Virus record (IMG/VR): IMGVR_UViG_2740892015_000005
Span: 1 to 44,032 of that record
DNA: 44,032 bases
Origin: a virus
Lineage: Duplodnaviria > Heunggongvirae > Uroviricota > Caudoviricetes
Reading direction: 5' to 3' (one strand)
The translations under genes were made by a program, and so were the position numbers. Positions 1 to 41,379 of this stretch are shown piece after piece (within the stretch, counting starts at the first letter, position 1; every line of letters starts with the position of its first letter). The notes below the pieces were generated by a model that saw only the letters and a list, made by a program, of their open reading frames with translations, ran no database searches and was not told the DNA's origin.

Positions 1-3000
1 CTATCCCGGGGTTTCCTCCTTCATGTTGTGCTGGCGATGGAGAGCAGTACTGCTGACGCTGTCATGCCATAAGCGGGTATAGAGGCCGCCCGCAGATAAC
101 AGCTGTTCGTGGGTTCCGTATTCCGCAAGTAACCCCTTATCAATAACGGCAATCAGATCGCAGCGTTGCGCGGTGGTCAGACGATGTGCAACAATCAGCG
201 CCGAGTGCTTCCCGGCATGCACGACATCTGTTAACGATGACATCAGTCGTTCTTCGGATGTGCGATCCAGACATGACGTGGCTTCGTCGAGCAGCAGGAT
301 GTGGGCATTCGCCAGTTGCGCGCGGGCCAGCGCAATCAACTGGCGCTGACCTGCGGGCAGATCGGCTCCGCCGTTATTCACCGGTGTCCGGAATCCCTGC
401 GGCAGATTGCACACCATCTCATACAGCCCTGCCCGCTGTGAGGCAATTTCAACGTCTTCATTGGTGGCGGATGGCCGTGAATAACGAATGTTTTCTGCAA
501 TATCACTACTAAACAGTGCTACATCCTGATCGACAAGCCCAATCTGGCGACGATACTCAGTGAGCGAGGCATCATCGAGCATTTGCACACCGATTCTGAT
601 GTTGCCGTGCGTGGGGAAATACAACCCGGCAATCAGCTTAATCAGCGTCGACTTACCCGCACCGCTGCGACCGACGACCGCGACAACCATTCCCTCTGGG
701 ATCGTCAGGGTAAGTTTGTTCAGAGCTGGCTCGTGACTGTCGGGATAACTGAACGTGACCTCATCAAGATGCAGTGCACCGGTGACAGGGAGGACCGAAG
801 AGGACCCGAGGTTCTCAGTGCCTTCTGTCGCCAGTAGTTCATCAATATGTTTGCCGCTGGCTGTCGCCTGCTGCCAGGCGTCGACAATCCCTGATAACTG
901 CTGCACTGGCCCATAGAATTGCCCCAGCAACAGGAAGAAAGCCGCCAGTACCCCGGCAGTCATTTCTCCAGCGGCGACCTGCGAAGCTCCCACTAACAGA
1001 ACAGCGGCATAGGAGGCCTCGGTGCAGAATGTCAGGAACGGAAAATAGACTGCAAGGTATTTTTGTGCTCGCACACGGGTTGCGCGGAAACGCTCCGATA
1101 ACGCGCGCAGCCGGGCGCCCTCCAGTTCCTGCTGACCATGCGATTGCACGACACGCAGGCCAGAGACTTTTTCCTGCAGGGTGCTGTTGACTTTGCCTAT
1201 TTCCAGCCGTGCCTGTGCATAAGCAGGGGTACTGAGGCGGCGATAAATCATGGTTGCCAGTGCGGCCACTGGCACTGCGCTTAATGCCGTCAGCGCCAGG
1301 AACGGGTCGAGCCAGAACATGGTGGCGGCGATTGCGAACATCGTCACCAGACTGGTGGCCGCACCGGCAAGGCCGTTTTGCAGAAAGCGGGCGAGAGAGT
1401 CCACATCAACGGTCATGCGGGTAAGACGCGAATCGGCATGCTTTTCATGCCAGGGGAGTCCAAGACGCAGCATATGGCCGAAGCTGCGCAAGCGCACCGA
1501 ATGCTGAACTGATTCCGCCGCTCTGGCGGCGAAGACCGTCTGCAGAGAATAACTGCACCAGCCCACAATGACCAGGCACAGGGCGAGCAGGGCACAGAGG
1601 CCGATGATCGACATATCGCCTGCGGCGACACCGGAGTCAATGCCGTGCTGCAACAGTATCAGTACCCCTACGCCTGCCGCAGAATCGAGTGCGATCAGCA
1701 GAGCGGCGATGACGAACATCCACGCCACAGGCTTCAGTAGTGACGTGACTTTGCGACCTTTACCGGCCAGCGCCTGCTGTACTGCATTTTCCGGTACGCG
1801 GGTCATACGGGCGACAAAACCTTTATCCCCCGTATCCGTTACATCGTCTTGTGTCGCTGGTTCAGCCGGCCACAATTCGTTGTGGCTATTGTGGGACGTG
1901 GCCAGAAAATCGCTGTCGCCGGTCATCAGTGCGCGGAACGCCGGACAGCGCGCTTCAAGTTCTGCCGGGGTTCCGGTATCCACCATACGGCCCTTATCCA
2001 GCACCACAACCCGGCTGGCTAGCTGAAGTGTTGAACGCCGTCGGGCAATCACCAGCAGCATATGCCCTTCGTCAGCATAGCGACCCAGCGCGGTATTAAT
2101 CTCCGCTTCCGTAACAGCATCAACCGCTGAGGTAGTATCATCCAGGATTAACACGTCCGGTGCAGTAATGAGCGCCCGCGCCAGCGCTATTCGCTGCCTC
2201 TGCCCGCCGGAAAGATTCGTACCCCGTTCGGTTAACAGGCTATCGAAGCCTTTCGGCAGGGCGTTAATAAAATCGCTGGCTCCTGCAGCAGCTGCCGCAC
2301 GGCGAATGTCGTCCGCCGTTGCCTGAGGGTGGCCATAGGCGATATTTTCCGCCACCGTACCGGCAAACAGAAAAGCATCTTCAAATACGATGCCTACCCG
2401 GCGACGAAGCGCCTCCAGTCTGATATCGCGAAGATTTTGTCGGCCTTCGCTGGTGTTGAGCCATATCTTTCCGGAGCAGGGATCATAAAAACGCGCCAGT
2501 AGCATCAACAGGGTCGATTTTCCTGAACCCGATGCGCCCACCACCGCCACGGTTTCACCGGCGCGCAGGGAAAAGGAGATATTGCTGAGGATATGTCTGT
2601 CGCCATGGTGGTAGTCAAAGCTCATATTCTCCAGTTCCAGTCCGACAACCTGACTGTTAATCGACTCCGTCCCGTCCTCCATCTGTGAACGGGTGTCGAT
2701 CAGTGCAAACACCCGCTCCACGGACGCCTGAGTGCGCTGTGCGATAACCAGAAACGATGCCAGTACGCGGGTTGGCCCGGTCAGCATCGCGAGGAAGCTG
2801 GCGAATGCAACGAAGGTACCGAGATCGATCCGCCCGTGCATGACCGACCACCCGCCGTAGCACAGCAGGACGATTTGCCCGAGCACCGGTAGCGCCAGCA
2901 TGGTGGCCCCAGGCATCGCCTGCGAGATAACCGCACCGATGCGTACACGCACAATCTGCCGCGACTGCCTATCGAGCCAGTGCGTTTCACGCATCTCTGC

Positions 3001-3660
3001 CACACAGGATTTTACCACTGAGATCTGTGCCAGCACCTCGCGTATATGTTCGGTGAGATTCGCCAGTTGGTCCGAGGCCAGCCCGGTTTGCGCGAAGACC
3101 CTACGACGCGCACGAAGCGCGGTGATCGCCAGGCATACCAGTACGCACACGACGATAAGCGTCATGGCAGGGGACATCCACAGCATCACGGCAATGCCGG
3201 CAATGTAATAAGTGAACACTGCCAGCGGCACCGGGCACATCTGCAGCAGGGTATGCACCTGCTGCAGATCGCTGTTGGTCCGTGAAATCACCTGCCCGGT
3301 GCGCAGCGCATCCTGGCCTGCGCCGTCAAGTTTCTGAATACTGTCGAATACCCGTCCTCTGAGGGTATGCTGCACCCAGAGTGAGAGCATCCCGGCATAA
3401 CCACGGCGCACATAGTTACCGATGAAATCAAAAAAAGCGATCAACAGTAACCCGCAGGCCAGCCACGGCAGGCGGGCCGGATTGCCCGCCAGTGCGTCAT
3501 TCACAGCCTGTCTTGTCAGCAGTGGCGTCAGCGCAGCCAGCAAAATAGTCGATACTGACGCTACCACCACGATGACACTAAGTTTCTTACGTTCCCAGCA
3601 CACGCGCGCTAGGCGAACTATCCATGACTGAGCCGGTGTGGGAGTGTGATTCGCAGGCAT
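1..3660 (-). CDS. Fused ABC exporter (TMD-NBD-TMD-NBD), siderophore/peptide-exporter type (IroC-like architecture); chromosomal flanking gene
   Basis: Two Walker A motifs (GASGSGKST and GRSGAGKST), two LSGGQRQR signature motifs and two hydrophobic permease domains in one ORF. The ORF track extends to 3786, but a GGAGG Shine-Dalgarno precedes the ATG at 3660 (MPANHTP...), giving about 1219 aa. GC content is visibly higher than in the prophage. Confidence 0.8.
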   Translation of the reverse strand: MPANHTPTPAQSWIVRLARVCWERKKLSVIVVVASVSTILLAALTPLLTRQAVNDALAGNPARLPWLACGLLLIAFFDFIGNYVRRGYAGMLSLWVQHTLRGRVFDSIQKLDGAGQDALRTGQVISRTNSDLQQVHTLLQMCPVPLAVFTYYIAGIAVMLWMSPAMTLIVVCVLVCLAITALRARRRVFAQTGLASDQLANLTEHIREVLAQISVVKSCVAEMRETHWLDRQSRQIVRVRIGAVISQAMPGATMLALPVLGQIVLLCYGGWSVMHGRIDLGTFVAFASFLAMLTGPTRVLASFLVIAQRTQASVERVFALIDTRSQMEDGTESINSQVVGLELENMSFDYHHGDRHILSNISFSLRAGETVAVVGASGSGKSTLLMLLARFYDPCSGKIWLNTSEGRQNLRDIRLEALRRRVGIVFEDAFLFAGTVAENIAYGHPQATADDIRRAAAAAGASDFINALPKGFDSLLTERGTNLSGGQRQRIALARALITAPDVLILDDTTSAVDAVTEAEINTALGRYADEGHMLLVIARRRSTLQLASRVVVLDKGRMVDTGTPAELEARCPAFRALMTGDSDFLATSHNSHNELWPAEPATQDDVTDTGDKGFVARMTRVPENAVQQALAGKGRKVTSLLKPVAWMFVIAALLIALDSAAGVGVLILLQHGIDSGVAAGDMSIIGLCALLALCLVIVGWCSYSLQTVFAARAAESVQHSVRLRSFGHMLRLGLPWHEKHADSRLTRMTVDVDSLARFLQNGLAGAATSLVTMFAIAATMFWLDPFLALTALSAVPVAALATMIYRRLSTPAYAQARLEIGKVNSTLQEKVSGLRVVQSHGQQELEGARLRALSERFRATRVRAQKYLAVYFPFLTFCTEASYAAVLLVGASQVAAGEMTAGVLAAFFLLLGQFYGPVQQLSGIVDAWQQATASGKHIDELLATEGTENLGSSSVLPVTGALHLDEVTFSYPDSHEPALNKLTLTIPEGMVVAVVGRSGAGKSTLIKLIAGLYFPTHGNIRIGVQMLDDASLTEYRRQIGLVDQDVALFSSDIAENIRYSRPSATNEDVEIASQRAGLYEMVCNLPQGFRTPVNNGGADLPAGQRQLIALARAQLANAHILLLDEATSCLDRTSEERLMSSLTDVVHAGKHSALIVAHRLTTAQRCDLIAVIDKGLLAEYGTHEQLLSAGGLYTRLWHDSVSSTALHRQHNMKEETPG

Positions 3661-15940: not shown

Positions 15941-16552
15941 ATGCGAATAAAAAAACTAATTGATCACGATGAGCTTCTGTCAACATTATCATATGACTCA
16001 GAAACAGGAATATTTAAATGGCTAAAAACAAATTCAGTAGTAAGAGTAAAAGGTAGTATTGCTGGAGGTGTTAGTGGTGGTTATATATGCATTAGCATAA
16101 ATAATGTTTTGTATTATGCGCATAGACTTGCTTGGTTCTATGTATACAAAAAATGGCCTCCTAAGTTTATTGATCATGTAAATGGGAACAGACTTGACAA
16201 TAGGATTTCAAATCTAAGACTGGCAACAGAAGAGCAGAATGCAAGAAACATTGTAGGGAATAGATTAAACACATCCGGTGCAATTGGAGTGTCTTGGTAT
16301 AAGCCAACTGGCAGGTGGAAGTCTTATGTTGGTTATAAAAATAAGACAATATCGTTAGGGTATTTCGATAGCAAAGAAGATGCAGCATTCATAGCAGCAC
16401 TAGCAAGAAAGAAACTATATGGAACTTATGCGAGTAAAGCACTTAATTGCGAGCATGAGCTTTTATCTCAATTTAATAATGATGAGGATAAACTTGCGGA
16501 ATATCTTAAGGAAAAATCTAAAAGGACTCGAAAGCGTGTTAAAAACAGATAA
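15941..16552 (+). CDS. HNH homing endonuclease (HNH plus AP2-like domain)
   Basis: Motifs YAHRLAW...IDHVNGNRLDNRISNLRLAT (HNH) and GVSWYKPTGRWKSYV (AP2-like). Strongly AT-rich and followed by its own terminator. Confidence 0.8.
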   Translation: MRIKKLIDHDELLSTLSYDSETGIFKWLKTNSVVRVKGSIAGGVSGGYICISINNVLYYAHRLAWFYVYKKWPPKFIDHVNGNRLDNRISNLRLATEEQNARNIVGNRLNTSGAIGVSWYKPTGRWKSYVGYKNKTISLGYFDSKEDAAFIAALARKKLYGTYASKALNCEHELLSQFNNDEDKLAEYLKEKSKRTRKRVKNR

Positions 16553-20349: not shown

Positions 20350-20862
20350 ATGAAAGAAATAAAATTAACGCCAGAAATGGTGCTTTCTGTTGTTGATTAC
20401 AATCCATCATCAGGCGACTTTCACTGGAGATGGAGGCAGGGGAGAGAGAGGACCACTTTGACATGGAACTCTCGTTTTGCTTTCAAGAAATGCTCATCAA
20501 TAAATTCTGATGGGTATTTAATGATTATGATTAATGGTAAAGCATACCCTGCTCACAGACTGGCATGGTTGATTGTTTATGGCACCATGCCCGATGGTTT
20601 TATTGATCACATCAACAGGGTAAGAACAGATAACCGGATATCAAATCTTCGTCTTGTCACTCATTCCGAAAATATGCAAAACAGGAAAATTCAGAAGAAT
20701 AATAAATCTGGATACCGTGGCGTGTCTTGGGATGCTAAGTACGGGAAATGGAGAGCAAGAATTAATGCGTCTGGAAAGTGTATTAACCTTGGATACCATG
20801 ACACTGCCGAACTTGCCGCTGCGGCTTTTGAGGCAGCCAGAATGAAATATCATACCGTTTAA
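20350..20862 (+). CDS. HNH homing endonuclease (HNH plus AP2-like domain) in the late leader
   Basis: AHRLAWLIVYG...IDHINRVRTDNRISNLRLVT (HNH) and GYRGVSWDAKYGKWRARI (AP2-like). Paralogous to the ORF at 15941..16552; AT-rich. Confidence 0.8.
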   Translation: MKEIKLTPEMVLSVVDYNPSSGDFHWRWRQGRERTTLTWNSRFAFKKCSSINSDGYLMIMINGKAYPAHRLAWLIVYGTMPDGFIDHINRVRTDNRISNLRLVTHSENMQNRKIQKNNKSGYRGVSWDAKYGKWRARINASGKCINLGYHDTAELAAAAFEAARMKYHTV

Positions 20863-30372: not shown

Positions 30373-30814
30373 TCTCGTTCTTAAGGCTTTACGAAAAGCC
30401 GGGCTGTATTCCAATGCCACGTTGACAGATGCCGACCCTCAGGCAATTGAAGATGCCATTAATGACCTCGAAGACATGATGGCAGCATGGCAGGCGAAAG
30501 GTATCGAGCTTGGATATCAGTTTGCGGATACAGAAAACGGCATCATGCCGTTACCTGACGATGATTCAGGTATCCCTGCATGGGCAAATGATGGCGTCGC
30601 TTTGAAGCTCGCTGTGCAAGTGTGCATGGATAACGTCATTCAGCCGTCAGACGCTCTCCTTACCGCTGCTGACAGTGCATATCAGACAATCTGCATCGCT
30701 TTAACCAAAATACCACCACTTGAGCGGCGAAATGACATGCCTCGCGGTAGTGGTAACAAAAGCGCGTTTACGTGGAATCGGTTTTACATCGAGAAAGATG
30801 ATCCGAGTACGTGA
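30353..30814 (+). CDS. Head completion / tail adaptor protein (P22 gp4-like)
   Basis: Synteny (coat, gp4, gp10, gp26) and size of 153 aa. Confidence 0.65.
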   Translation: MAKTKGDLVLKALRKAGLYSNATLTDADPQAIEDAINDLEDMMAAWQAKGIELGYQFADTENGIMPLPDDDSGIPAWANDGVALKLAVQVCMDNVIQPSDALLTAADSAYQTICIALTKIPPLERRNDMPRGSGNKSAFTWNRFYIEKDDPST

Positions 30815-30823
30815 GGTGAATAA

Positions 30824-30928
30824 ATGCCGATTCAGCAACTTCCGCTTATGAAAGGTGTCGGCAAAGACTTCCTAAACGCCGACTATATCGACTATCTGCC
30901 AGTGAATATGTTGGCAATTTTGATATAA
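30824..30928 (+). pseudogene. Remnant 5' fragment of gene 10 (first 31 codons, then premature stop)
   Basis: MPIQQLPLMKGVGKDFLNADYIDYLPVNMLA matches the P22 gp10 N-terminus as I recall it, then runs into ILI-stop. GAGGTGA Shine-Dalgarno. The intact gene resumes at 31497 with a recoded copy of the same codons. Confidence 0.6.
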
Positions 30929-30964
30929 TAAGTACATGAAAAATCGAAACTTTAAGGAGTAGAT

Positions 30965-31549
30965 ATGCTTTCTGAGAATGCTAAAGATATACCTGGATTT
31001 GAAGGTGTTTATGCCGTAACAGAAGATGGCAGGGTATATTCTCACTCACGTGTTGTTAAGGCTGCGCATGGCAGCACGCAACTCAGAAAGGGGCGCTGGT
31101 TAAAGCCTAAAATCAATCAGGGAAGGGTGCTTTATAATATCGGAGCAAAATGGACTTTTGCCCATCGAATCGTTGCAATGACATTCCTGCCAAATCCTGA
31201 AAACAAGCCTCAGGTAAATCATATTGATGGCAATCCACTCAATAATAACGTCAATAATCTTGAGTGGTGCACTCAAAGCGAAAACATCAAACATGCATAC
31301 GCCACCGGATTAAAGAAACCAATCAAGTTTTTCGGAACCAAGCACCCAAAACACAAGTTGAGTGATGACGATGTTCTTGCAATCAAGTCATCAAAAGAAA
31401 GCTTGTCAGTAATTGCGGCTAAGTACGGAATATCTAAGACCTGGGCAAGTAGGCTAAAGCGTGATGCTAACTGGGTTCATATAAAGGCTGATTCCAATGG
31501 CAATACAACAACTACCACTAATGAAGGGATTGGGGAAAAGTGCGGTTAA
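30965..31549 (+). CDS. HNH homing endonuclease (NUMOD4-like N-terminus plus HNH)
   Basis: N-terminal [19 protein letters not shown] module and HNH motif (FLPNPENKPQVNHIDGNPLNNNVNNLEWCTQSEN). AT-rich. The 3' end overlaps the gene 10 start. Confidence 0.8.
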   Translation: MLSENAKDIPGFEGVYAVTEDGRVYSHSRVVKAAHGSTQLRKGRWLKPKINQGRVLYNIGAKWTFAHRIVAMTFLPNPENKPQVNHIDGNPLNNNVNNLEWCTQSENIKHAYATGLKKPIKFFGTKHPKHKLSDDDVLAIKSSKESLSVIAAKYGISKTWASRLKRDANWVHIKADSNGNTTTTTNEGIGEKCG

Positions 31550-32915
31550 TGCTGATTATATAGACCAACTTCCAGTCAATCTTTTAGCTACGCCCAAGGA
31601 GGTGTTGAATTCATCGGGATATCTTCGCTCATTCCCGGGCATTGCAAAACGTTCCGACGTGAATGGCGTATCGCGGGGCGTCGAGTACAACATGGCGCAG
31701 AGTGCTGTTTATCGTGTGTGTGGTGGCAAGCTGTACAAAGGAGAAAGTGAAGTCGGTGATGTTGCCGGAAGTGGTCGTGTATCAATGGCGCATGGTCGGA
31801 CATCACAGGCGGTAGGAGTTAATGGTCAACTGGTCGAGTATCGTTATGATGGCACGGTTAAAACCGTCTCAAACTGGCCAACAGACAGCGGATTCACGCA
31901 GTATGAATTAGGTTCGGTCCGTGACATTACGCGCTTACGTGGGCGTTATGCGTGGTCAAAAGACGGCACTGATTCATGGTTTATCACTGACCTTGAAGAC
32001 GAATCGCATCCTGACCGATACAGCGCACAATATCGCGCAGAATCGCAGCCTGACGGCATCATCGGCATCGGAACATGGCGAGACTTCATCGTATGCTTTG
32101 GTTCATCAACGATTGAATATTTCTCCCTGACTGGTGCAACCACCGTTGGTGCCGCTTTGTATGTCGCACAGCCATCGCTGATGGTGCAGAAAGGTATTGC
32201 CGGGACTTACTGCAAAACGCCATTCGCTGATTCTTATGCGTTCATCAGCAATCCGGCAACAGGTGCGCCGTCTGTATATATCATCGGCTCCGGTCAGGTA
32301 TCACCAATCGCCAGCGCGAGCATTGAGAAAATCCTCCGCTCCTACACTGCTGATGAACTTGCTGATGGTGTGATGGAGTCTCTGCGATTTGATGCGCATG
32401 AGCTGCTGATTATTCACCTGCCGCGCCATGTCCTCGTGTACGACGCATCTTCAAGCGCCAATGGTCCGCAATGGTGCGTACTGAAAACAGGCCTGTATGA
32501 CGATGTGTACCGCGCTATCGACTTCATTTACGAAGGCAATCAGATAACGTGCGGCGATAAGCTGGAGTCCGTGACCGGGAAACTGCAGTTCGATATATCT
32601 TCACAATACGAAAAACAACAAGAGCATATTTTATATTCCCCTCTAATAAAGGCAGATAACGCTTTAATAAATGACCTTGAATTAGAAACATCTGGCGGCG
32701 TGTGTGATAGAATAGATAAAATATTTATATCAGCCACTACAGATGGAATTAGTTACGGTCGTGAGCAAATGGTCGTATTACAAAAACCATTTGTATATGA
32801 CAATCGCGTTTTATGGCGAAAGGTTGGTCGAGTTAGACGCCTCATCGGATTTAAATTCAGAGTTATTGCAAAAGGTCCTGTCACATTATCAGGCCTTTCT
32901 ATTCGTGCAACATAA
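31497..32915 (+). CDS. Gene 10 product (P22 gp10-like tail hub protein)
   Basis: 472 aa, co-linear with P22 gp10 as I recall it. The first roughly 30 codons and the last roughly 110 codons are AT-rich (recoded) relative to the middle. Confidence 0.8.
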   Translation: MAIQQLPLMKGLGKSAVNADYIDQLPVNLLATPKEVLNSSGYLRSFPGIAKRSDVNGVSRGVEYNMAQSAVYRVCGGKLYKGESEVGDVAGSGRVSMAHGRTSQAVGVNGQLVEYRYDGTVKTVSNWPTDSGFTQYELGSVRDITRLRGRYAWSKDGTDSWFITDLEDESHPDRYSAQYRAESQPDGIIGIGTWRDFIVCFGSSTIEYFSLTGATTVGAALYVAQPSLMVQKGIAGTYCKTPFADSYAFISNPATGAPSVYIIGSGQVSPIASASIEKILRSYTADELADGVMESLRFDAHELLIIHLPRHVLVYDASSSANGPQWCVLKTGLYDDVYRAIDFIYEGNQITCGDKLESVTGKLQFDISSQYEKQQEHILYSPLIKADNALINDLELETSGGVCDRIDKIFISATTDGISYGREQMVVLQKPFVYDNRVLWRKVGRVRRLIGFKFRVIAKGPVTLSGLSIRAT

Positions 32916-32936
32916 ATCGAAACTCAAGGAGTAGAT

Positions 32937-33470
32937 ATGTTAAGTGAAAACGCAAAAGATATCGAAGGATATGAAGGACTGTACGCCATCACTAATGATG
33001 GTAGAGTTTACTCGCATTCAAGAGTAAATTTGAGGGGACGCCTTATTAAGGGTAGGTGGCTAAAGCATAATCATAACGTAAATGGATATAAGTATGTGTG
33101 TTTATATAAGGATGGCGTAAAAAAGAACATACTAATACATAAGCTTGTTGCATCTCACTTTGTTGGTGGATTTGCTGAAGGGTTACAGGTAAATCATATA
33201 GATGGTGATAAATATAATAATAACTATCTAAATCTTGAATGGGTTACTCCATCAGGAAACATCTCACACTCATATGGATTGGAGTCGAGAGGTAATGTAA
33301 AAGGAGAAAGGAATGGTAATTCTAAAATATCTAATGATGATGTCATAAAGATAAAAGAAATGGTTGCCAATGGATTTCCTCAGTGTGAAGTTGCTAAATT
33401 ATTTGGAATTCACAATTCAAAGGTTAGTAGAATTGTAAATGGCAAGGCATGGAGGCATGTTAATGGCTGA
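32937..33470 (+). CDS. HNH homing endonuclease (NUMOD4-like plus HNH plus C-terminal HTH), paralogue of 30965..31549
   Basis: Shares the upstream sequence AAATCGAAACT..AAGGAGTAGATATG and the N-terminus [25 protein letters not shown] with the other gene-10-associated HNH. Motif [22 protein letters not shown]. Confidence 0.8.
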
Positions 33471-34164
33471 TTCGAATCTCAACACCCCTGTTATTGTGCA
33501 GGCTACACGGCTCGACACATCAGTCCTTCCACGCAATATCTTCTCGCAGTCATATCTGCTGTACGTTATCGCACAGGGTACTGATGTTGGTAATGTGGCG
33601 AACAAGGCCAACGAGGCCGGACAGGGCGCTTACGATGCTCAGGTGAAAAACGATGAACAGGATGTCGAACTGGCTGATCACGACGCAAGAATCACCGCAA
33701 ACACAAAAGCGATAAATCTCCTTGAGGTCAGGTTAACAACCGCCGAAGGGAAGATAGTCGTACTGCGTAGCGATGTTGATTACTTGCTGGATGAGGTTAT
33801 CGATATTCAGGCGCATCTGGTCACTGTTGACCAAAGACTGGATGACGTAGAAAACGATGTCTCTGGCATTAAGAGTGATTACGTATCGAAAACCGTAACC
33901 GAATTGCAGTCTCTTGAGTCACCGCTGGATGTAAAAACATCATATTCAGTTGATGGAATTCAGGTTGTTGGAGCAAGAAATACCGGATGGACTGCAGCCA
34001 CAGGTACGCCACTTCTTGGCTCATTCAACGCTAACCAGTCATACACGGTCGGCACTACGTACACACAATCCGAAGTCGCAGCTCTCGCTACAGGTTTGCA
34101 GCAGGCGCGGCAGCGTATTCTGGCGCTCGAAACGGCACTTAGATTACATGGGCTGATTGACTGA
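33463..34164 (+). CDS. Tail needle protein (P22 gp26-like)
   Basis: 233 aa, alignable with P22 gp26 ([37 protein letters not shown]...; C-terminal [22 protein letters not shown]). Confidence 0.85.
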
Positions 34165-40449: not shown

Positions 40450-41379
40450 ATGAAAAGTATAGCAACAGCAGTATCTACTATCAACGTGCCATTCCACGGC
40501 GCAGAGCTTTATGTCGTCAATCACAACGGTGAGCCGTACACCCCAATGAAACCTATCGTTGAAGGTATGGGTATGGATTGGGCTTCACAGTTTACGAAAA
40601 TAAAGCAACGGTTTAAAACCTCCATTGTGAAAATCACAATGCAGCTTCCTGGTGATGAACAGTGCCGTGAGATTATTTGTTTGGCACTTCGCAAACTTGC
40701 TGGCTGGCTGCAAACCATCAGTCCAAACAAAGTCCGCCCTGAAATCCGCGACAAGGTAATCCAGTATCAGGAAGAGTGTGACGATGTGCTATACGAGTAC
40801 TGGACTAAAGGCCATGTAGTTAACCCACGCAAAGCTAAAAAGGCGTTGCCGGGTAAAATCACCACTGAACAGCAGGAAGCCATTAAACAACTCGTCATGA
40901 GTCGCGGTCAGTCTCTGCCAAAGGAAAAACAGGCTAAGGCGATGATCACCATGTGGTCGTCACTGAAATCCCATTTTGGATGTTCATACAAAGAAATCAG
41001 TGAGGAGCAGTTTACCGAAGCACTGTCACTTGCAGCTCGAGTTCCGCTTGAAGGTGAGTTCATTGGCAAACAAGAGAAGAAAACCAACGAGCTTTCTGCA
41101 AAAGAAGCAAACAGCCTTGTATGGCTATGGGATTATGCCAACCGCTCACAGGCATTATTCCGCGAACTGTATCCGGCATTAAAACAAATTCAATCGAACT
41201 ATTCCGGCAGATGCTACGACTACGGTCATGAATTCTCGTATGTTATCGGAATGGCGAGAGACGTTTTAATCAATCACACACGAGATGTTGATATCAATGA
41301 GCCAGACGGACCAACGAATATTTCCGCATGGATGAGACTTAAGAATAAAGAATTACCTCCTTCAGTACATAACTACTGA
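40450..41379 (+). CDS. ant: Antirepressor (P22 Ant-like)
   Basis: Position downstream of arc; 309 aa (P22 Ant is about 300 aa); N-terminal segment [32 protein letters not shown] fits the P22 antirepressor N-domain pattern. Confidence 0.65.

Follow-up and report, generated by a model that had tools for sequence, protein, structure and literature searches.

The gene 10-gene 26 boundary

We analysed a stretch of 44,032 nucleotides (nt), hereafter the window, which is the IMG/VR record IMGVR_UViG_2740892015_000005 and corresponds to positions 2036687-2080718 of the E. coli chromosome NZ_OZ040490.1. It holds a P22-like (Lederbergvirus-type) prophage beside fliE. In the late operon of this prophage, between gene 10 (tail hub) and gene 26 (tail needle), lies the element described here: a divergent, AT-rich 3' end of gene 10, which we call the AT-type tail, followed directly by a gene for a predicted HNH endonuclease, HNH#2. 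We refer to the two together as the cassette. The boundary had been singled out in an original prediction made from the sequence of the window.

Gene 10 (31497..32915, + strand) encodes gp10, the tail hub or packaged DNA stabilization protein, of 472 amino acids (aa). The protein matches Pfam Phage_stabilise with 926 bits, and it also matches Sf6 gp8 (7SG7) and P22 gp10 (8TVR). When we compared the gene with gene 10 of CUS-3 and HK620 in bins of 60 nt, we observed a three-part mosaic with a divergent 5' end (31497-31616), a canonical middle (31617-32596) and a divergent, AT-rich 3' end (32597-32915). The nucleotide identity per bin was 87-100% over 31617-32576. From the bin starting at 32577 to the stop codon it was 45-73%, with an amino-acid identity per bin of 50-85%. 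The predicted co-linearity of the gene held throughout, since all 472 codons could be aligned with CUS-3 and HK620 with zero indels.

An abrupt switch to AT-rich sequence over roughly the last 110 codons of gene 10 had also been predicted, and this was confirmed. Between 32560 and 32600 the GC content of the window drops from 0.50-0.55 to 0.32-0.42, and it recovers only past 33470. The middle of gene 10 (31617-32594) has a GC content of 0.52 and a GC content at third codon positions (GC3) of 0.52, as compared to 0.36 and 0.23 in the tail (32595-32912); the values for the HNH#2 gene are 0.35 and 0.27. Uniform codon usage along gene 10, which had been put forward as the result that would speak against such a switch, was therefore not seen. 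As the differences from canonical gene 10 begin as a block at 32597, the AT-type tail (32597..32915, + strand) consists of 106 codons plus the stop codon, and not of about 110.

The 3' end of gene 10 had been described as recoded, and this proved to be wrong. The AT-type tail shows 63-69% amino-acid identity (about 66%) to canonical tails, so that 34% of its residues differ, and its rate of nonsynonymous change (dN) against them is 0.33. In the middle of gene 10, by contrast, dN is 0.003 and the corresponding synonymous rate (dS) is approximately 0.28. At 66 conserved degenerate positions, the codon was identical to that of CUS-3 or HK620 in 20-26 cases, where about 21 would be expected from independent choice. 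Since this is the chance expectation, the synonymous sites of the tail are fully saturated, with an identity neither above nor below chance. Directed synonymous recoding could thus be ruled out (P = 0.6-0.9 in a within-amino-acid permutation). The tail is instead a homologue of the canonical gene 10 end that diverged long ago and is joined to a canonical body. Among all the tails seen, the sole length variant was a carrier with three extra codons in its AT-type tail (L030, 2501-2845).

The tail is followed by a leader, AAATCGAAACTCAAGGAGTAGAT (32914..32936, + strand), that begins within the gene 10 stop codon and contains the Shine-Dalgarno sequence AAGGAG at 32926-32931. The ATG of HNH#2 lies 21 nt past the gene 10 stop. 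HNH#2 (32937..33470, + strand) is predicted to be a free-standing I-HmuI-like endonuclease of 177 aa, on the evidence of Pfam, of a match to the I-HmuI structure 1U3E and of PHROG. It has a NUMOD4 domain at aa 7-57 (49.5 bits; cut-off 23.4) and an HNH_3 domain at aa 67-108 (39.3 bits; cut-off 24.8). A C-terminal helix-turn-helix at aa 129-168 scored 18.6 bits with HTH_23, below the cut-off of 24.6; the alignment with 1U3E spans this region. Residues 7-174 align with chain residues 4-163 of I-HmuI (E = 8.4e-21), and the protein falls in PHROG 59, "HNH endonuclease" (E = 2e-49). His87, Asn99 and Asn108 align with the HNH motif of I-HmuI and are invariant in all six relatives.

HNH#2 is a separate open reading frame (ORF) with its own Shine-Dalgarno sequence and ATG, outside any intron. 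No group I intron or other RNA was matched in Rfam at E <= 1 within 30600-33800, no promoter or terminator was found on the + strand of the cassette, and RNA folding of the conserved leader was not significant (z = -0.29).

On the right side, homology to HNH-free phages resumes exactly at the junction TAATGGCTGA (33461..33470). As had been predicted, the 3' end of HNH#2 overlaps the start of gene 26; its stop codon (33468-33470) overlaps the gene 26 ATG (33463) within ATGGCTGA, by 8 nt. At empty sites it is the gene 10 stop that overlaps the gene 26 start. The last HNH codons (W-R-H-V-N-G) include a GGAGG (33451..33455, + strand) located 7 nt upstream of the gene 26 ATG, and with it the cassette is likely to provide the ribosome-binding site of gene 26. 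Gene 26 itself (33463..34164, + strand) is the canonical right flank, as seen from its annotation and its identity to the empty-site phages.

Linkage of the tail to the endonuclease gene

The association of the AT-type tail with an HNH gene was evaluated in three samples. The first comprised 61 loci taken from the window, from E. coli and phage records and from IMG/VR contigs, in which the tails were classed as AT-type (at least 81% amino-acid identity, GC 0.35-0.42) or canonical (62-72%). We observed that all 34 AT-type tails were followed by an HNH gene and that none of the 27 canonical tails was; in all but two of the latter, the gene 26 match started 9-10 nt past the tail match. For the second, 5426 complete E. 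coli genomes were searched with 32628-32975 as the query. The gene 10-26 region was present in about 934-935 of these genomes and the cassette in 56, a frequency of approximately 6% of E. coli P22-like prophages. Every one of the 56 genomes with an AT-type tail carried HNH. In 53, NUMOD4/HNH was annotated under the 3' end of the match, and the remaining three (ETEC6333, ETEC6334 and M160133) had an insertion sequence (IS), IS3 or IS1, in the start of HNH with the remainder of the gene beyond it. The third sample was a metagenome scan, where 8 of 8 AT-type tails had the HNH gene and 72 of 72 canonical tails lacked it.

Overall, 0 of 99 canonical tails had an HNH gene, and no HNH body was found without an AT-type tail. 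The association of the tail with HNH is thus without exception in either direction. An AT-rich gene 10 end lacking an adjacent endonuclease gene, the second result that had been named as speaking against the prediction, was never encountered (56/56, 34/34 and 8/8 linked). The functional phages P22, HK620, Sf6 and CUS-3 are without the cassette, as are most P22-like records.

Three clades of HNH proteins could be distinguished at the gene 10/26 site, namely A (to which the window belongs, 177 aa), B (181 aa) and C (181 aa), with a mutual identity of 44-57%. Purifying selection on each of them is strong (dN/dS 0.04-0.07), and all three keep the C-terminal WRHVNG. Clade A and clade B carriers share 97-100% identity over the tail, the leader and the first ~40 nt of the ORF, and from there to the last ~30 nt the identity is about 50%. 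This drop behind the tail and leader indicates that endonuclease bodies have been swapped behind a common tail. A genome scan with the HNH alignment yielded only distant relatives (<=48% identity) in unrelated metagenome-assembled genomes.

The same first ~40 nt of the gene 10/26 HNH are the site of the IS insertions, with IS1 in M160133 and one IMG/VR contig, and IS3 in ETEC6333 and ETEC6334. The IS spans are at 2909-3606 of locus L002 and 1681-2909 of L003, with another in L024, and they represent at least two separate disruptions of this short stretch.

To locate the edges of the cassette, the 34 carriers were compared base by base with the canonical consensus, with CUS-3, HK620 and VTB96777v as the empty-site references for the junction alignment. 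The left crossovers lie in a zone at 32583..32630. In class J1, which includes the window and about 15 other carriers, the canonical sequence ends at 32596 (window coordinates) and the switch is at about 32597; in class J2, with about a dozen carriers, the sequence stays canonical to about 32627. The two are about 30 nt apart, a third variant is present, and the classes are independent of the HNH clade.

The identity among carriers was 97% for the tail and 98-99% for HNH, as compared to 92-94% for the middle of gene 10 and 59-85% for gene 26. The cassette is therefore younger than both of its flanks. The flanks of the window match HNH-free prophages best, at 95.3%, while its cassette is 99.1% identical to those of many other strains. 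We also observed the cassette in backgrounds with no more than 69-79% protein identity in the middle of gene 10 (L034 and L036), and the gp4, gp5 and gp26 types beside it span 26%-100% identity. The variable left junction, together with the higher similarity of the cassette over its flanks, fits repeated transfer.

A related cassette at the other end of gene 10

The divergent 5' end of gene 10 belongs to a second, paralogous cassette (30824..31616, + strand), made up of a gene remnant, a leader, the endonuclease gene HNH#1 and a replacement 5' end. The canonical codons 1-31 of gene 10 have been left as a dead fragment at 30824-30916. They are followed by the leader (30941-30964), by HNH#1 (30965-31549) and by the replacement 5' end (31497-31616), which overlaps the 3' end of HNH#1 by 53 nt and has 60-67% nucleotide and 75-85% amino-acid identity to the canonical sequence. 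This arrangement, including the same 31-codon fragment, is shared by 28 IMG/VR loci, where it lies beside very different gp4/gp5 types. A terminator-like hairpin at 30897-30916 (TGCCAGTGAATATGTTGGCA then ATTTTGATAT), recognised from a consensus match only, is situated within the late operon exactly at the left junction of HNH#1.

The two HNH genes had been proposed to be paralogues at adjacent gene boundaries. Their paralogy was borne out (43% identity over 181 aligned positions, E = 7e-39), but HNH#1 lies inside the original gene 10 and not at a clean gene boundary. The reported similarity of their N-termini is present, with 24 of the first 30 residues identical, and so is the common upstream sequence. 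The leader motif, AAATCGAAACT-N1-2-AAGGAGTAGATATG, occurs in exactly two copies in the window, at 30941 and 32914, and none of 100 shuffled sequences matched it. The first ~140 nt of HNH#1 (30965-31105) are 87-97% identical to a clade B HNH gene (L004, 2878-3018), beyond which the similarity is random, and we read this drop as a sharp recombination breakpoint between the paralogous endonuclease genes. HNH#1 and the gene 10/26 HNH occur together in 3 of the 34 carriers.

The leader motif precedes HNH#1 and, at the gene 10/26 site, the genes of all three clades. It is also complete upstream of an unrelated environmental homologue (L119), and partial in a clade located between Q and the holin gene. 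As it accompanies related genes in other contexts, the leader belongs to the endonuclease unit. A fourth relative of 172 aa (L085-L091, e.g. L086, 2501-3019) is 47% identical to HNH#2 and likewise starts with MLSENAKDI, with a leader that is similar in part; it lies in lambdoid contigs, flanked by a Q-like antiterminator gene and the holin/lysozyme genes.

There are four HNH genes in the window, and only HNH#1 and HNH#2 are of the NUMOD4 type. The other two combine HNH_3 with AP2. One is located after the replicative helicase gene (15941-16552) and the other between the antiterminator Q gene and the holin gene (20350-20862); both are low in GC (0.34 and 0.41). Elsewhere in the window, the antirepressor is annotated as two pieces, an N-terminal pseudogene and a separate ORF with the P22AR C-terminal domain (40450-40833 and 40951-41379).

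Interpretation and relation to known systems

We consider it probable that the region from ~32597 to 33462 is a selfish cassette of ~0.87 kb, in which the gene for a free-standing I-HmuI-like HNH homing endonuclease travels with the diverged last 106 codons of gene 10. This reading draws its direct support from the anatomy of the cassette, the family of its endonuclease, the full linkage, the variable junctions, the younger age of the cassette and the purifying selection. We infer nuclease-driven co-conversion of the tail and, by analogy with known homing endonucleases, nuclease activity, a target, immunity of carriers and super-Mendelian inheritance.

By analogy with T4 SegF, SegG and MobE, the process would begin when a phage or prophage bearing the cassette encounters a P22-like genome that is free of it. 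The nuclease would nick or cut the canonical allele at or close to the junction of the gene 10 3' end with gene 26, and resection with recombinational repair would then copy the cassette from the carrier genome. As the tail is only 45-73% identical to the canonical sequence, no crossover occurs between it and the HNH gene, and the tail is always co-transferred. The crossovers would resolve in the first homologous DNA available, which is 32583-32630 on the left side and gene 26 on the right. Carriers are probably immune, with the target removed or altered by the tail, by the insertion or by both. The build of the cassette would make it harmless: gene 10 stays full length, HNH has its own strong ribosome-binding site, and the last HNH codons may give gene 26 a GGAGG and restore the stop/start overlap.

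Candidate targets are the best-conserved canonical stretches, which are 32600-32630 and the sequence across the gene 10/26 junction. The first of these is an improbable target for clade B, and hence an improbable shared one, because J2 carriers retain the canonical sequence there.

Tentatively, the AT-type tail may go further and belong permanently to the selfish element, as a portable substitute, resistant to cleavage, for one end of an essential gene and not as a passenger from some donor phage; we think it possible, with the balance somewhat against it. If so, about 22% of gp10 in carriers would be encoded by cassettes (the last 106 residues, plus the first ~40 where HNH#1 is present), and these ends would evolve apart from the rest of gene 10. 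The three HNH clades would then share one tail and swap bodies behind a common leader, and gene 10 would serve a diversifying family of temperate-phage endonucleases as its dedicated landing pad.

We also searched for the source of the tail. No match was found in the GTDB representative genomes, and among 1.84 billion representative proteins there was no full-length gp10 with 69%-96% identity to the tail. A word-indexed protein search with the tail returned fragments only. The nearest relatives of the tail are the enterobacterial canonical tails, and the next clearly separate group of gp10 proteins has <=46% amino-acid identity. The tail was either imported from an unsampled low-GC lineage or has long diverged while locked to the endonuclease gene. 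A database protein of 474 aa (P0032) joins the N-terminal part of a DnaB-like helicase to the C-terminal 130 residues of a canonical gp10, and is probably a chimera of assembly or gene calling.

The likelier of two alternatives is an ordinary mosaic module, with the tail and HNH spread by general homologous recombination and vertical descent and HNH kept for some benefit to the phage, e.g. attack on competing or superinfecting P22-like genomes or DNA processing, and not for homing. We regard this as unlikely. The virion genes of P22-like phages are indeed heavily mosaic, as the range of adjoining gp4, gp5 and gp26 types (26% to 100%) illustrates, but the cassette is younger than both of its flanks, and the crossovers are placed exactly at the edge of heterology. 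Inheritance as a block would follow from the missing homology in the tail. Strong purifying selection would suit any useful function, and the low frequency of about 6% is in keeping with such a module; against this reading, the phages P22, HK620, Sf6 and CUS-3 are functional without the cassette. Furthermore, the domain architecture and full-length similarity indicate a characterised homing endonuclease, and the same family is found at a second site of gene 10 with the same logic of flank replacement.

The remaining alternative is that the tail is a resistance allele that diverged in place to escape cleavage, with AT-biased drift while locked to HNH. It would agree with the absence of an HNH-free lineage with an AT-type tail from every collection searched, with the enterobacterial canonical tails (63-69%) as closest relatives ahead of the <=46% group, and with the similar GC3 of the tail and the HNH gene. 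We hold it to be quite improbable, since codon identity is at chance (20-26 of 66, ~21 expected) and not lower, with no sign of directed recoding, since the 34% of residues that differ are distributed over all 106 codons and not around one site, and since J2 carriers keep 30 nt more of the canonical sequence without apparent harm.

Several observations weigh against the interpretation of the element as a homing cassette. The linkage can be explained by missing homology alone, so that an active nuclease is not required for it. The residue before the His of the HNH motif, which aligns with the metal ligand Asp74 of I-HmuI, is Asn in all of these proteins. A cassette frequency of ~6% is unlike that of an efficient drive at equilibrium. 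No near-isogenic pair of filled and empty sites was found, the best empty-site flanks being 95.3% identical. Cleavage, the target site and biased inheritance are parts of the interpretation that we infer. Neither an HNH-free AT-type tail nor a fully AT-type gene 10 was present in the viral, genome and metagenome collections. The original prediction had the tail as a co-converted flank that arrived with the element. Its travelling with the element is supported by the complete linkage, the variable junctions and the younger cassette; as no donor lineage was found, its arrival from elsewhere is not demonstrated.

P22-like phages serve as a main model of how virions assemble and how mosaic genomes evolve. 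Free-standing homing endonucleases with co-conversion of flanks are textbook knowledge for lytic T-even phages, and to our knowledge they are little documented in temperate P22-like phages. The present case can be followed at base resolution, with an element that rewrites an essential tail gene at either end and leaves it unbroken, and the cassettes account for two mosaic boundaries inside gene 10. For annotation, they explain why a "partial gene 10" pseudogene is called and why, in about 6% of the P22-like prophages of E. coli, the end of gp10 is unusually low in GC. P22, Sf6, HK620 and CUS-3 are tractable and free of the cassette, so the predicted cleavage, immunity and biased inheritance are open to direct test. 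In the literature, we found no description of the element in P22-like phages; the likeliest source, Casjens and Thuman-Commike 2011, was outside the coverage of the search.

Judged on its sequence, the element has the domains and the full-length similarity of an I-HmuI-like HNH protein. It also has the sequence features of a free-standing homing endonuclease gene, namely a separate ORF, presence or absence at one fixed site, a linked flank with variable end-points, and greater uniformity than its flanks. The gene for I-HmuI of Bacillus phage SPO1 lies in a group I intron within the DNA polymerase gene, and the enzyme nicks a single strand. It is close in size to HNH#2 (174 vs 177 aa) and has the same order of NUMOD4 region, HNH core and C-terminal helix-turn-helix (PDB 1U3E), the last of these scoring below its cut-off in HNH#2; the His and two Asn of its HNH motif are kept in HNH#2. 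HNH#2 differs in that its gene stands free between two tail genes, outside any intron, that the Asp74 position is Asn, and that its activity is predicted. A terminase-associated HNH protein of the HK97 gp74 type, which would lie beside the terminase or portal genes and be required for packaging throughout the family, could be rejected, since HNH#2 lies between tail genes at ~7 kb from the terminase and is absent from the functional phages HK620 and CUS-3.

Homing endonuclease genes (HEGs) are known to lie at boundaries of genetic exchange, and in HEG-islands they bracket essential genes (Barth, Dunham and Seed 2023, PMC10448857). The arrangement in the window resembles this, as two related endonuclease genes with domain shuffling bracket one essential virion gene at recombination boundaries. 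However, the bracketed middle of gene 10 is not unusually conserved (92-94%, below the cassette), and the two HEGs occur together in only 3 of 34 carriers. They thus behave like two independent cassettes and not like one island.

A further parallel is the intronless homing of T4, in which co-conversion and marker exclusion by SegF, SegG and MobE were shown experimentally (PMC2988022). There, as here, a free-standing, promoter-less endonuclease ORF lies between essential genes of an existing operon, a flank of the neighbouring gene is carried along, and carrier and non-carrier alleles differ (PMC2988022). The enzymes are different, since SegF and SegG are GIY-YIG proteins and MobE is an HNH protein with another C-terminal region. 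The T4 cases also belong to lytic T-even phages, whereas the present element resides in a temperate P22-like prophage, replaces a saturated flank of 319 nt and is known from sequence alone. Read as a homing element, it would be a clean, if ordinary, example of "intronless homing" in phages.

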